Source: Klebsiella phage RCIP0009. From it: 64,000 nt of DNA. Location of the stretch: the sequence record OR532803.1. The stretch is one strand, 5' to 3'. Every line of letters begins with the position of its first letter. Position 1 is the first letter of the stretch. This document shows positions 48,747 through 51,262 of the stretch, one piece after another. The position numbers and the translations under genes were made by a program. The notes beneath the pieces were generated by a model. That model saw only the letters and a list, made by a program, of their open reading frames with translations. It was not told the origin of the DNA and searched no databases.

Positions 48747-48817
48747 GATATCCTCCTTAGTTTCGATGTGTGTACAATAACAGATTGGGGTTATAGAGTT
48801 TTAGCAATTCGTGCTAA

Positions 48818-49096
48818 TTATGCCATTTTCTTAGCGATTTTCCAGGCGGCTTTGAATGCCGGAACATCTTCAATATCAACCCAAAAACCAGCACCAAAAC
48901 CATCATCGTAGCAAGGGCAACCGTCGCAGTAATTTTCCCAGGTCATCACTTCACCACCAACAGAAGCACCAGTTTCCATAGCGCGTAATGCATCTTCAAC
49001 TTTTTCCAGTTTTTCTGCATTGTTGTCATAAATGATGAAGTACCATTTTCCGTTGTATTCGTTACCCAGTTTGATTGCTTCGCGAACAAGTTTCAT
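48818..49096 (-). CDS. hypothetical protein with conserved leader
   Basis: Start MKLVREAI follows TTACACACATCGAAACGAAACAGACAAAAAGGAAAATCATC. The track ORF reads through the leader. Confidence 0.45.
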   Translation of the reverse strand: MKLVREAIKLGNEYNGKWYFIIYDNNAEKLEKVEDALRAMETGASVGGEVMTWENYCDGCPCYDDGFGAGFWVDIEDVPAFKAAWKIAKKMA

Positions 49097-49166
49097 GATG
49101 ATTTTCCTTTTTGTCTGTTTCGTTTCGATGTGTGTAAGATACCACAACCAGAGTTTAATGCAACAA

Positions 49167-49499
49167 TTATTTTGCTTCAAGTTCGATATTTTTCCATGTT
49201 TTCATCGGAACCCCTATCGCATCCCAAAACTTAACATCTTCCGCTGCAATCAGAGTAAAGAAGATACCAGTTTTCCAGTATTTCCCGTTTCTGATTTCGT
49301 TTGCGATCTCATTCAACTGGTCGCAAAAATGTTCAGTCCAACTAACATCACCATCCCAGCGAGAACGTGGATTGTACAGAGAAAATATGAAACTATCAAT
49401 ATAAGAAGATTTTCCGGTAGAAACTCCCATCAAAACAGCCAGGATTGTGCGAACTGCATATAAATTCTGAACCTCAACACTTCTCGTCTTAATAGTCAT
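49167..49499 (-). CDS. hypothetical protein with conserved leader
   Basis: Start MTIKTRS follows the hairpin, then TTGTTATATTGCATTCATCGAAACGAAACAGAGGAATC. Confidence 0.45.
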   Translation of the reverse strand: MTIKTRSVEVQNLYAVRTILAVLMGVSTGKSSYIDSFIFSLYNPRSRWDGDVSWTEHFCDQLNEIANEIRNGKYWKTGIFFTLIAAEDVKFWDAIGVPMKTWKNIELEAK

Positions 49500-49575
49500 T
49501 TCATGATTCCTCTGTTTCGTTTCGATGAATGCAATATAACAAAACCCCTCACCATAGGCAAGGGGTTTTTGCAAA
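49500..49575 (-). promoter_or_regulatory. PeSL-like cassette, subfamily A
   Basis: - strand reads CAAAAACCCCTTGCCTATGGTGAGGGGTTTTGTTATATTGCATTCATCGAAACGAAACAGAGGAATC. Confidence 0.5.
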
Positions 49576-49577
49576 AA

Positions 49578-49835
49578 TTATCGTTTGATTGGGGTATTAT
49601 CTATAACCCGTTGAATTTCCGAACGCATCGTAGAATACTGGCACAATTCGGTAAGCGCCCGATCCAGGTGCATCATAGCGTAAGAAAACTCTTTTCCGCA
49701 TTTGTCGCATCTAGCGTATAAATGTAAATGAATTCGCCCTATCCCATCTACCTGACTATATTTCTGGAATATGTAAGGATCTGCACCTCGATAGCCAGTA
49801 GCTTCGTGCTTACACTCTCGTTTGAACCATGACAT
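49578..49835 (-). CDS. hypothetical zinc-ribbon protein
   Basis: CKHE near the N-terminus and CDKCGKEF later. Confidence 0.4.
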   Translation of the reverse strand: MSWFKRECKHEATGYRGADPYIFQKYSQVDGIGRIHLHLYARCDKCGKEFSYAMMHLDRALTELCQYSTMRSEIQRVIDNTPIKR

Positions 49836-50410
49836 TAATAATATCCTTGTACGTTGAAGCGGTCACACAACAATTTTTTTGTTTGGTTAGTATCGCTTTG
49901 GATAGAATGCAACATAGCGCTGAACATGTTTAGGTTATTTTGCATCATTTCCGCGCTCATGAGAACTTCCATACGCGCACGTAAGCGTTTATTTTCTTCT
50001 TCCAACTCAACCATACGGTCATATGCTTTGATGCGCTCTAAGGGCATATCAGGGCGCTCTTTGAGTACGCGAGCACGTTCAACCTCACAAGCATGATTTG
50101 CTTTCCAGTGGTTCGATTCCGCTTCAAATTTATTAAGGCGGCGGATCTCTTCAACCAGCTTTTTGATCATGTGTGGATCCATCATGTCGATGAATTTCAT
50201 CAAGCAATTGGATTTTGTTTGGTTGTCAGCAACAGACCAAGACGAATTATACGTAACCGTAAACGTGCGGCCCATTTCATCAACAACCCCGATCTTGTTA
50301 TCATCGGTGATTGTAGCCGCCCATTTCTCCCTCATGGCTGTACAGGTTCCGCTGGCGACACTATGCAACTTGTTTAATGTTGCGTCATCAAACACAATTT
50401 CATCACTCAT
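49835..50410 (-). CDS. hypothetical protein
   Basis: 191 aa with a C-terminal coiled coil. Confidence 0.45.
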   Translation of the reverse strand: MSDEIVFDDATLNKLHSVASGTCTAMREKWAATITDDNKIGVVDEMGRTFTVTYNSSWSVADNQTKSNCLMKFIDMMDPHMIKKLVEEIRRLNKFEAESNHWKANHACEVERARVLKERPDMPLERIKAYDRMVELEEENKRLRARMEVLMSAEMMQNNLNMFSAMLHSIQSDTNQTKKLLCDRFNVQGYY

Positions 50411-50417
50411 GTATGCC

Positions 50418-50816
50418 TCACATAGATTTCAAAATACGCAGAAGTGCGTTAGTAAAGATATCAGGAACACAACCACCAAACAACTTATGATTCATCAGCG
50501 CTAATTTCATGCTGTGATTTTCAGTATATCGCCCGTTATGGATCCCCCAGGCAACGACATTACCAGGTTCATGAATAACTAAGTTAGTGAGAGTAACGGT
50601 CATGCGCTCTTTATCATTGATAGAGAATGAATAGCAGTAACCGGATCCGATGTCGCCGTAAAGGTTAAGGTCTTTCAATTTCCCTTGCTCATGCAAGCGT
50701 TTCATATGAACTGCACATGCATGATTAATAGTCATTTCGTCATCCCTAGCCCAGTCATCAATACCAGAGGTATAACGAATATTGAAGTAGTTAGTCAGTT
50801 CATTTGATACGCTCAT
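50418..50816 (-). CDS. hypothetical protein
   Basis: Track ORF runs to 50918. Start taken at the internal Met MSVSNEL with RBS agtgagg. Confidence 0.4.
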   Translation of the reverse strand: MSVSNELTNYFNIRYTSGIDDWARDDEMTINHACAVHMKRLHEQGKLKDLNLYGDIGSGYCYSFSINDKERMTVTLTNLVIHEPGNVVAWGIHNGRYTENHSMKLALMNHKLFGGCVPDIFTNALLRILKSM

Positions 50817-50994
50817 TAGAAACCTCACTTTTATAAAATTCTTTACCAGACCCATTACAGATACTGCATTTGGGGGAACGGTTGCTATCATACCGCCCCG
50901 ATCCGTTACATGCAACACATTTCCTTAATTTCCAGCCATACACGAACCGCATATAATAATCAGTTCGTGCGGCCTTGCGTTCGTGGAAATTCAT
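50800..50994 (-). CDS. small DnaJ-type zinc-finger protein (2 x CxxCxGxG)
   Basis: CVACNGSG and CSICNGSG. Start taken at the Met that is ATGA-coupled to the upstream gene. Confidence 0.4.
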   Translation of the reverse strand: MNFHERKAARTDYYMRFVYGWKLRKCVACNGSGRYDSNRSPKCSICNGSGKEFYKSEVSNERIK

Positions 50995-51191
50995 GCTTTG
51001 TAAACCTGAACCAACCACATTTCGATGTTAGGCGCGTAAGTAACGTTTACCTTATGCATAGTGCGGTATTTGTAAGCGGCTTTGTATGCATCGAGTTCAG
51101 TCGGAACACAGAAAGAGAAACCGTTGTCATAGCGTTCTGCGTTAGAAACTTCACAACCAACTACAGCGGCAATATTTTTGTTCATGTTCAT
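50991..51191 (-). CDS. hypothetical protein with conserved leader
   Basis: Start MNMNKNIAAV follows the full PeSL-A cassette. Confidence 0.45.
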   Translation of the reverse strand: MNMNKNIAAVVGCEVSNAERYDNGFSFCVPTELDAYKAAYKYRTMHKVNVTYAPNIEMWLVQVYKA

Positions 51192-51262
51192 GGTGTTTTC
51201 CTTTCTCTGTTTCGTTTCGATGTGTGTAATATAACAAAGCCCCTGCACTAATGCAAGGGCTT
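51192..51262 (-). promoter_or_regulatory. PeSL-like cassette, subfamily A (closest to the 12525 copy)
   Basis: - strand reads AAAAAGCCCTTGCATTAGTGCAGGGGCTTTGTTATATTACACACATCGAAACGAAACAGAGAAAGGAAAACACC then ATG. Confidence 0.5.

Follow-up and report, generated by a model that had tools for sequence, protein, structure and literature searches.

The stretch analyzed here, called the window throughout, comprises 64,000 nucleotides (nt) of Klebsiella phage RCIP0009 (OR532803.1) and carries a dispersed family of short cassettes in which a predicted promoter, in several copies a GC hairpin, and a conserved leader precede the start codon of a small gene. Our analysis centered on positions 48747-51262. 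The phage belongs to the genus Slopekvirus (the KP15/KP27/Matisse group; Straboviridae, T4-like), and the phage collection searched holds ~170 relatives. A 3-kb region around the finding was 100% identical to several Klebsiella Slopekvirus phages, for example phi_KPN_S3 and RCIP0020, and 97-98% identical to Matisse. Over 43-57 kb, the window matched RCIP0020 at 99.9% identity along the full length and phi_KPN_S3 at 100% over 48500-51500, and differed from KP27 by several indels. In contrast, the DNA ligase region (11900-13700) was 100% identical to KP27, and OQ267591, which equals the window over 32-64 kb, does not do so there. The window's phage is thus a mosaic (10978-13700 versus 43000-57000).

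The initial annotation had proposed a common module upstream of eight start codons (12598 and 12938 on the plus strand; 44409, 48746, 49096, 49499, 51191 and 55611 on the minus strand), and a related -10/leader module was indeed present upstream of all eight. In full form, the module runs from an A-tract through a GC hairpin with a -35 hexamer (TTGCAT) in its 5' arm, 17 nt, a -10 hexamer (TATATT) and ACACAC to the leader (ATCGAAACGAAAC...AGGA...ATG). Across the full copies the -35 reads TTGCAT, TTGCCT or TTGACT and the -10 TATATT or TATTAT, at a spacing of 17 nt, and an AAAAA or T-tract/A-tract element lies upstream of all of them. A Shine-Dalgarno sequence (SD; AAGGA or GGAG) was located 6-9 nt upstream of the ATG in 8/8 copies. 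The leader core CGAAACGAAACAG (≤2 mismatches) matched seven times in the window against 2.07 expected, a count reached by 0/100 shuffles, and the -10/leader pattern TATATTNCANNCATCGAAAC (≤3 mismatches) matched eight times against 0.46 expected. An nhmmer profile built from six cassette copies and run against the window recovered seven strong copies (E = 3e-22 to 5e-13; the first seven entries below, the first of them matched over 12518-12601) and seven weaker promoter or hairpin relatives, all on the minus strand (the next seven entries), a density of ~14 copies per 64 kb. The last entry is a gene discussed further on.

12509..12601, plus strand: full cassette, directly 3' of the DNA ligase stop (12507); nhmmer E = 3e-22
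12866..12949, plus strand: variant cassette; nhmmer E = 2e-15; hairpin -14 kcal/mol, z -3.5
48735..48816, minus strand: hairpin-less 'TAGCAC'-type cassette; nhmmer E = 5e-14
49096..49175, minus strand: hairpin-less ('half') cassette; nhmmer E = 2.5e-17; no hairpin, z +0.6
49494..49575, minus strand: full cassette; nhmmer E = 3e-19; hairpin -20 kcal/mol
51188..51268, minus strand: full cassette; nhmmer E = 1.5e-20; terminator-like; -19.7 kcal/mol, z -4.9
55606..55678, minus strand: full cassette; nhmmer E = 5e-13; hairpin -19.3 kcal/mol
44397..44483, minus strand: divergent cassette; nhmmer E = 7.5e-4
47943..47997, minus strand: promoter belonging to this family (CTCTTGCGT...TATATT), leader divergent, followed by ATG 47928; nhmmer and sequence reading
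32289..32335, minus strand: hairpin and promoter copy (GCCCTTGCGT..GTGAGGGC, -10 TATTAT) with an unrelated leader; E = 2e-5; -20.8 kcal/mol, z -6.7
22194..22260, minus strand: hairpin and promoter copy (-35 TTGACT in stem, -10 TATATT), leader TATCGAAAACAATGAGG; -17 kcal/mol
38938..38987, minus strand: hairpin and promoter copy (TTGACT in stem, -10 TATTAT) with a different leader; -21.5 kcal/mol, z -6.5
28152..28219, minus strand: hairpin-less promoter (CGCTTGCAT, 17 nt, TATAGT), leader TTGAAACGAAACTGACAAAAGGAAC; nhmmer and sequence reading
38183..38248, minus strand: weakest of the seven weaker relatives; nhmmer E = 0.0097
49167..49499, minus strand: 110-amino-acid (aa) accessory gene with a cassette at each end; comparison with close relatives

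In the copy read from 51268, AAAAA is followed by a stem-loop (51263-51236; GCCCTTGCA-TTAG-TGCAGGGGC) that holds the -35 within its 5' arm and the -10 within its T-rich tail. ACACAC comes after the -10, the predicted transcription start (+1) is the A at 51221, and the leader (ATCGAAACGAAACAGAGAAAGGAAAACACC) ends at ATG 51191, which opens a 66-aa open reading frame (ORF). Here, the -35 TTGCAT (51256-51251), the 17-nt spacer, the -10 TATATT (51233-51228) and the start codon all lie where they were first annotated. At 49494..49575, the hairpin (49569-49541; CCCCTTGCC/GGTGAGGGG) is combined with -35 TTGCCT, -10 TATATT and the leader GCATTC-ATCGAAACGAAACAGAGGAATC, leading to ATG 49499 of the 110-aa ORF; a mini-ORF of three codons (ATG AAA TGA) was also noted at 49497-49504, its stop overlapping the real ATG of that gene (ATGAAATGACT). 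The full copy at 55606..55678 has its hairpin at 55674-55647, -35 TTGCAT, -10 TATATT and the leader GGCCTTG-TCGAAACAAAGGAGG, followed by ATG 55611 of a 46-aa ORF, and that at 12509..12601 begins with TAGCACTTTTTGTTTAAAAAG (UP-like), followed by hairpin, -35 TTGCAT, -10 TATATT, leader and ATG 12598 of an 89-aa ORF. The copy at 49096..49175 has -35 TTGCAT, -10 TATCTT and the leader ACACAC-ATCGAAACGAAACAGACAAAAAGGAAAATCATC, and its ATG (49096) opens a 92-aa DUF5417/Frd.1-like ORF. At 48735..48816, TAGCACGAATTGCTAAAAC, 18 nt, TATTGT and ACACAC-ATCGAAACTAAGGAGG precede ATG 48746 of an 83-aa ORF; this copy has the architecture of T1-like phage promoters and an exact 18-nt match to Escherichia phage grams. 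A TAGCAC element is present in two window cassettes (12509 and 48816). The variant at 12866..12949 has -35 TTGCTT, another hairpin of 10 bp that overlaps the -10 (TACATT), and the leader ACCCAT-ATCGAAACGAAAGGAG before ATG 12938 of a 59-aa ORF. The divergent copy at 44397..44483 reads -35 TTGACG, -10 GACTAT and leader TCGAAACGAAACACACTTTAGGAG before ATG 44409 of an 87-aa ORF, and the weakest relative (38183..38248) is hairpin-less and promoter-like (TTCTTGCGT ... TATTAT), with leader ACCCCTATCGAAGAGGATG and then a start codon.

The cassettes were more similar to each other (mean pairwise identity 0.67, maximum 0.84) than were their flanks, the 0.58-0.59 of which is the background of the alignment scoring used. 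The likeness of about 95% reported for the 12518 and 51268 copies, which are 38 kb apart and on opposite strands, came to 94%, with 5/82 aligned positions differing. A generic promoter scan did not discriminate (48 found versus 41 expected) and was not used as evidence; it lists a single cassette (49561), the TTGCAT/TATATT copies scoring just under its threshold. As initially described, the genes downstream are small and accessory: the eight proteins have 46-110 aa and none has a known function, one being DUF5417/Frd.1-like. In the complete phi_KPN_S3 genome, the profile found 17 copies at E ≤ 0.01, located at 2.6, 14.3-14.9, 30.1, 61.5-62.9, 72, 82, 93.9-105.1 and 161.5 kb. All 17 are in early or plastic regions, and at the same threshold the structural block at 106-161 kb had no cassette copy. 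One annotated coding sequence of phi_KPN_S3 (its locus 12135-12704) runs through the corresponding cassette.

The GC hairpin (GCCCTTGCAT..GCAGGGGC) had been attributed to every listed copy, and this held for four of the eight (12598, 49499, 51191 and 55611; -19 to -20 kcal/mol, z -3.3 to -4.9) but not for the other four. Folding gave no significant hairpin in the 49096 and 48746 copies, the 12938 copy has a different hairpin, over its -10, and no GC hairpin was seen on reading the sequence of the 44409 copy, which was not folded. The repeats are real, but half of the listed copies lack the GC hairpin; the hairpin-less copies are degraded or 'half' cassettes. Three more hairpin copies, with a different leader, were found at 32335, 22260 and 38987, and the seven window hairpins fold at -17 to -21.5 kcal/mol, with z ≤ -3.3 in six of the seven (z -2.35 for the 22260 copy). 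A generic terminator scan of 42-58 kb ranked the three full cassettes in that interval as its top three terminator-like sites. The suggestion that the hairpin doubles as terminator of the upstream gene thus agrees with the scan and with folding, both of which predict a terminator-like stem-loop. Moreover, all 30 distinct hairpin variants from this phage lineage fold (-11.5 to -25.6 kcal/mol), and compensatory changes on both sides occur at four stem positions (G-C/C-G, A-T/G-C, C-G/A-T), while the CTTG of the -35 is fixed. Stem pairs were counted per sequence from RNAfold structures, MAFFT being out of register for stems of unequal length. Given the strong folds and the two-sided stem changes with CTTG fixed, the stem is under selection as a structure, and the predicted promoter and the terminator-like hairpin overlap completely.

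We compared the window with its relatives for rearrangements at and away from the cassettes. The 110-aa gene (49167-49499) is missing in seven relatives, namely KP15, KP27, Kiwi, phT4A, RCIP0052, phiKp_5 and ALF, and this presence/absence pattern in close relatives is that of a module flanked by cassettes. The corresponding indel is 361 nt long, with the 49494..49575 cassette as its left partner, the 49096..49175 cassette as its right partner, and alignment blocks that overlap by 36 nt. In relatives without the gene a single chimeric cassette remains, which takes its hairpin, -35 and TATATT from the left copy and its leader (ACACAC...CAGACAAAAAGG) from the right one. These junctions are those of a homologous crossover within the -10/leader. 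Homologues of the 110-aa gene are patchily distributed, in a Pectobacterium T4-like phage, 46-kb siphoviruses and Aeromonas phages. In the first of these, POP12, the homologue is flanked by that phage's own repeated cassette (640-700 and 1035-1097), which reads TTGAT/TTGTCA, then TTTTTGGTGAA(G/T)TTGATACTATGGCTTCACCAAA with a stem-loop over the -10, and then GGAGATAT; the POP12 cassettes appear to be a lineage-specific family of the type discussed below.

Additional rearrangements lie at other copies. In many close relatives the homology stops at 12507/8, where the ligase-proximal cassette has its 5' edge; these include the 13 listed rows with 99.2-99.8% identity across the DNA ligase gene. Roth23, Kiwi and Tauntaun have an extra module after DNA ligase, composed of a different cassette and a ~220-aa gene, whose alignment break is at 12579, inside the leader. 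The 12509..12601 cassette marks a mosaic boundary. The same cassette reads CAGACAAAAGGAACATCCCATGCAAATC in six orthologues and CAGAGAAAGGAAAACATCATGAACATC in the window, as in the 51268 copy. Its leader and first codons have thus undergone an ectopic conversion to the 51268 type, 38 kb away and on the other strand, which accounts for the 94% identity of the two copies. The 110-aa gene indel, the ~220-aa gene module and the ectopic leader conversion are three rearrangements that break inside cassettes. Relative to the Pseudotevenvirus phages RB43 and GAP161, the window has a background identity of 69-78%, from which two blocks at 87-93% stand out. Both begin at cassettes (51265-51288 and 49149), and the one that starts from the 49096..49175 cassette has 92-93%. 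Furthermore, KP27 and other relatives have a different sequence in place of a 565-nt block (48494-47930); the right edge of this block is at the start codon after cassette 47997-47943, and the replacement has its own version of the cassette.

Two further differences were observed elsewhere in the window. At 50995-50997, Roth22, Kiwi, phT4A and RCIP0052 have 150 additional nt, comprising a 44-aa ORF and an SD for it, inserted precisely where the stop and start codons of two small genes overlap (ATGA); no cassette takes part. At 47284-47688, 405 nt near the 5' end of the radical-SAM gene region are replaced by 931 nt in Kiwi, phT4A and RCIP0052, with a homing-endonuclease-like ORF in opposite orientation.

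These properties are those of promoter-early stem-loop cassettes (PeSLs), which were defined in phages RB49 and phi1. In their definition, a sigma-70-like early promoter preceded by A/T-rich sequence is combined with a G/C stem-loop, whose position varies, and with an SD and ATG (Arbiol et al. 2010, PMC2839356). In RB49 and phi1, PeSLs are concentrated upstream of ORFans in hyperplastic regions and bound indels between both phages, and their promoter activity, terminator activity and mini-circles were demonstrated experimentally (PMC2839356). The window cassettes have a sigma-70-type promoter with A/T-rich sequence upstream; a stable G/C stem-loop in or next to the promoter, in seven window copies and the 30 variants, the stem over the -10 of the 12866 copy corresponding to another described PeSL subclass; an SD and start codon at the 3' end; a location directly upstream of ORFans in a hyperplastic region; and cassette-bounded indels or replacements that leave chimeric cassettes, albeit with modest enrichment. 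There is also sequence homology with the RB49/phi1 cassettes, at the -10-ACAC(C/A)-CATCGAAACGAAAC junction, whereas the -35 and stem differ. Specifically, the annotated early promoters of GEC-3S (Krischvirus, RB49 group) read TGTTGACA-N17-CATAAT-ACACC-CATCGAAACGAAAC...GGAG...ATG, and since they share this junction, the -10/leader junction is homologous and not just analogous, and the motif spans at least three T4-like genera (Krischvirus, Pseudotevenvirus and Slopekvirus). GEC-3S promoters with the CATCGAAACGAAAC transcript start are at 1513-1590, 1782-1842 and 2475-2548; no T4 or T-even record was among the matches listed in the motif scans. We conclude that the cassettes are very likely PeSL-type regulatory cassettes of a Slopekvirus. 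The initial annotation had likewise matched them to PeSL-like cassettes that shuffle small accessory genes, and every feature of that match that could be tested in silico agreed. PeSLs are already described, and they are here extended, with clear junction sequences, to the Slopekvirus/Pseudotevenvirus lineage.

In a full copy, three signals are compressed into ~80 bp. An intrinsic-terminator-like GC hairpin with a T-rich tract would stop transcription from the upstream gene, and because an A-tract precedes it, the hairpin could act in both directions. A predicted host sigma-70 promoter has its -35 (TTGCAT/TTGACT) in the 5' arm of that hairpin and its -10 (TATATT) in the T-rich tail. The third signal is a standard U-poor, A/C-rich leader of ~30 nt, ending in the SD and ATG of the small gene. 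The genome comparison shows that phage recombination uses the 40-80 bp of near-identity between copies as crossover sites: genes between two cassettes are gained or lost together with one cassette, blocks beginning at a cassette are exchanged between genera, and distant copies convert each other.

Rearrangement boundaries fell in cassettes in four of 24 cases, the cassettes filling 4.6% of the region (P = 0.024), an enrichment that is real but moderate. It could be argued that the copies are merely similar promoters, kept alike by selection for strength, that overlap with rearrangements incidentally and have no role in shuffling: just four of the 24 boundaries are in cassettes, several indels have no cassette at either end, and unrelated strong phage promoters have similar initial transcribed sequences. 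However, we consider this account improbable given the chimeric single cassette exactly at the missing 110-aa gene, the second cassette-bounded module after DNA ligase, the ectopic conversion tract between copies 38 kb apart, the high-identity inter-genus blocks that begin at cassettes, the same edge effect in T1-like phages (below), and the mini-circles demonstrated for homologous cassettes in RB49 and phi1 (PMC2839356).

Among 13 orthologues of the 51188..51268 cassette from Slopekvirus and Pseudotevenvirus, 37/40 positions of the -10-through-leader stretch were invariant, while the upstream gene was only 55-88% conserved. The A of ATCGAAAC is 7 nt past the -10, the expected start position, and transcription would begin there; consequently, ACACAC-ATCGAAACGAAAC would represent the discriminator and initial transcribed sequence of a strong early promoter, not an operator. 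The invariant 13-14 nt would then be the 5' end of the transcript and part of the promoter/initial-transcribed region, and we infer a role for the leader in promoter escape, 5'-end stability or another process. An exact-pattern scan of IMG/VR with TATATT-N6-ATCGAAACGAAAC returned 98 stretches, about a quarter of them T4-like. Most others were repressor-type promoters of ~45-kb temperate phages, matching the annotated pL of HK639 (TTGCCA, 17 nt, TATCTT, TAATCC, ATCGAAACGAAAC), where the putL antiterminator RNA begins ~67 nt later and no ORF follows, and another group was from T1-like Drexlerviridae.

A host origin of the motif was rejected: in 185,579 species genomes of bacteria and archaea, one each, there were 12 matches, approximately the number expected by chance, four of which look like phage sequence inside assemblies, and the motif is therefore considered phage-specific. 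A 178,077-bp contig of Flagellimonas marina (NZ_JBHSCL010000010.1) is probably phage contamination, as it has three cassette copies and is about as long as the genome of a Pseudotevenvirus or Slopekvirus; a 244-bp contig of Streptomyces sp. P17 also carries a phage cassette. Rfam at the gathering threshold gave no match at five motif-carrying loci, so the leader belongs to no curated RNA family; the sole Rfam match in the window was a tRNA (5610-5683, plus strand), and a related record annotates a tRNA-Met at 5206-5282, its coordinates being shifted relative to the window in that part. A full-text literature search for the motif strings returned unrelated primers only, and one on Slopekvirus transcriptomics and T1-like promoter motifs found nothing useful.

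The initial annotation had also raised the idea that the conserved 5' untranslated region is a translational operator. In its specific form, a phage post-transcriptional regulator, either a RegA-like repressor or a RegB-like nuclease, would bind or cleave the leader (AUCGAAACGAAAC RNA) and thereby control the small genes together. The leader is indeed conserved more than the adjoining coding DNA, regA is annotated in phi_KPN_S3 and a RegB-like gene in Matisse, and the SD of four copies (48746, 55611, 12938 and 44409) contains GGAG, the target motif of T4 RegB. Nevertheless, the operator is poorly supported and in our estimate quite improbable. T4 RegA operators lie in the SD/AUG region, whereas the invariant part here is the first 13 nt beginning at the predicted +1, and the SD-proximal part differs between copies. 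The same leader start heads the non-coding HK639 pL leader, ~67 nt before putL, and the promoters of T1-like phages, and it resembles the initial transcribed sequences of T7 A1/A3; nor does it match an Rfam family. Together, these points speak against a translational operator particular to Slopekvirus.

A third reading takes the motifs for MotA-type middle-mode promoters. It draws on the GenBank records of KP15 and KP27, where MEME/ARNold annotations label them 'putative middle promoter; discovered using MEME', overlapping a terminator (method in PMC5219037), and on TGCTT-like strings in some copies, for example GTGCTTGCTTAC at 12880. The geometry is nonetheless that of a sigma-70 -35, with the upstream hexamer 17 nt from the -10, and no Mot box, (a/t)(a/t)(a/t)TGCTTtA centered at -30 and 11-13 nt from the -10 (consensus in PMC1524935), was found at the required spacing. 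Neither T4 MotA nor T4 AsiA gave a tblastn match in the complete phi_KPN_S3 genome (best E = 1.5-1.7); the MotA query, which matches T4 motA at 100% identity, picks up homologues elsewhere at identities as low as 33-37%, while the AsiA query had no positive control. RB43, moreover, is without motA and without a middle consensus (PMC1524935, PMC3486835). The -35 geometry and the search for MotA thus leave the 'middle promoter' label unsupported, and we regard the reading as highly improbable. Finally, although the copies are dispersed, on both strands and with an inverted repeat (the hairpin), it is barely credible that they are autonomous or non-autonomous mobile elements, similar to miniature inverted-repeat transposable elements and moved by a dedicated transposase or recombinase, as there are no target-site duplications, the unit lacks flanking terminal inverted repeats, the junctions are homologous crossovers inside the unit, and every copy is fixed in position and orientation relative to a gene start.

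Several points weigh against the PeSL assignment itself. Half of the initially listed copies lack the hairpin, and the high conservation of the leader could alternatively stem from a function at the RNA level. The start site, early timing, and promoter and terminator activity are deduced from the sequence and from experiments in the RB49 group. Additionally, 20 of the 24 boundaries in the region lie outside cassettes. No cassette is involved in the 150-nt gene insertion, the insertion of the homing-endonuclease ORF, a microhomology deletion or several divergent segments. Exchange through cassettes is thus one of several routes, and its enrichment is modest.

Similar units were found outside the T4-like phages. 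The T1-like siphovirus grams (NC_049825; Drexlerviridae) has at least 15 promoter-like units, at positions that include 399-, 2254-, 3131-, 5267+, 6541+, 7843+, 9209+, 40272+, 42796+, 43837+, 47086- and 49253- (signs denoting strand). Each unit comprises TAGCAC(T/G)..TTG(T/C)TAAAA (TAGCACTTTTTGTTAAAA), ~19 nt that often form a hairpin, a TATAAT-like -10, N6, and a leader, (C)ATCGAAAC-like or CATCGAAAC-like, with an SD and ATG, an architecture that is also that of window cassettes 48816 and 12509. The longest exact runs shared with the window were 18 nt in grams and 29 nt in a T1-like metagenome contig. Among the Hanriverviruses grams, herni, G29-2 and JLBYU41, several mosaic boundaries coincide with the borders of cassettes (positions 6538/9, 6617/8 and 9286/7 of grams and position 1468 of the herni locus). 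These T1-like units and boundaries suggest that a linker of this kind is at work in Drexlerviridae too, and that the unit may have passed from one family to another. In the pL promoters of HK022-like temperate phages (HK639 378-430 and ~60 other IMG/VR loci), the operator palindromes differ (ATACnnnnnGTAT, TGCGT..ACGCA, TACCC..GGGTA), and the transcripts all start ATCGAAACGAAAC(ATCGA), upstream of the putL antiterminator RNA.

This distribution over several phage families is the one new lead. It is possible, as a tentative proposal, that the promoter-leader unit (an optional TAGCAC-N5-GYTAAAA, the -10, a 6-nt discriminator and CATCGAAACGAAAC) is a linker exchanged horizontally between unrelated enterobacterial phage families, and/or that the 14-mer has an undescribed sequence-specific function at the 5' ends of early transcripts; if so, PeSL-type modular shuffling would operate across phage families. 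A common transcript start in T4-like, T1-like and lambdoid phages is also a lead on the strength of the early promoter plus leader and bears on the movement of regulatory modules between families. Slopekvirus and Pseudotevenvirus phages are widely used therapy candidates against Klebsiella. For them, the cassettes would explain how small accessory genes come and go at fixed genome points, show directly where early transcription units lie, and indicate where sequence can safely be inserted or deleted in phage engineering. The analysis also corrects the 'middle promoter' labels in reference records.

In comparison with known systems, the cassettes are closest to the PeSLs of RB49, phi1 and GEC-3S, with which they share the sigma-70-type promoter and A/T-rich tract, the terminator G/C stem-loop, the SD and start codon, ~80-100 bp of conservation, a location upstream of small ORFans in plastic regions, and indels bounded by two cassettes that leave one chimeric cassette. 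Their -10-to-leader junction reads TATATT-ACACA-CATCGAAACGAAAC against CATAAT-ACACC-CATCGAAACGAAAC in GEC-3S. Unlike the RB49-group PeSLs, in which the stem is mostly between TGTTGACA and the -10, the window cassettes have the -35 TTGCAT/TTGACT inside a stem (GCCC..GGGC) that surrounds it, and some have the TAGCAC-N5-GYTAAAA upstream element. Copy number is also lower (17 at strict threshold versus ~50), and the RB49-group PeSLs have been tested by experiment, whereas the Slopekvirus cassettes are known here from sequence. The PeSL/PmSL sets of PST/T4 and nt-1/KVP40, which extended the concept and include 'degraded' copies (Comeau et al. 2014, PMC4122927), similarly have intact and degraded ('1/2') cassettes near indels, comparable to the hairpin-less window copies, but with their own promoter consensus (TTTACW / TTGYVH) and stems they are analogues and not sequence homologues.

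RB43, from the sister genus, has orthologous cassettes almost identical to those of the window. Early promoters were predicted in RB43 (Nolan et al. 2006, PMC1524935) and used for rki (PMC3486835), and a northern blot showed a gene transcribed early from such a promoter (PMC3486835); these were described as promoters only, the hairpin, leader and recombination role not being analyzed there, although 'PeSL-like sequences' near RB43 g43 were mentioned in passing (PMC2839356). The T7 record annotates the A1 start as CC followed by ATCGAG (read further, CC followed by ATCGAGAGGG) and that of A3 as CAC followed by ATGAAACGAC (CAC followed by ATGAAACGACAG). As in the window cassettes, these initial transcribed sequences start at an A after C, have AUCGA or AUGAAACGA at the 5' end, and are U-poor and purine-rich in the first 15-20 nt; unlike the cassettes, they form no dispersed repeat family, and from so short a resemblance functional equivalence can only be inferred. 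Finally, lambdoid 'morons' and Botstein linker sequences are alike in that genes move together with a promoter and terminator of their own, and modules are exchanged under the guidance of conserved linkers. Morons are believed to integrate through illegitimate recombination, with no conserved flanking sequence (discussed in PMC2839356), whereas in the window cassettes the conserved regulatory unit is itself the crossover site.

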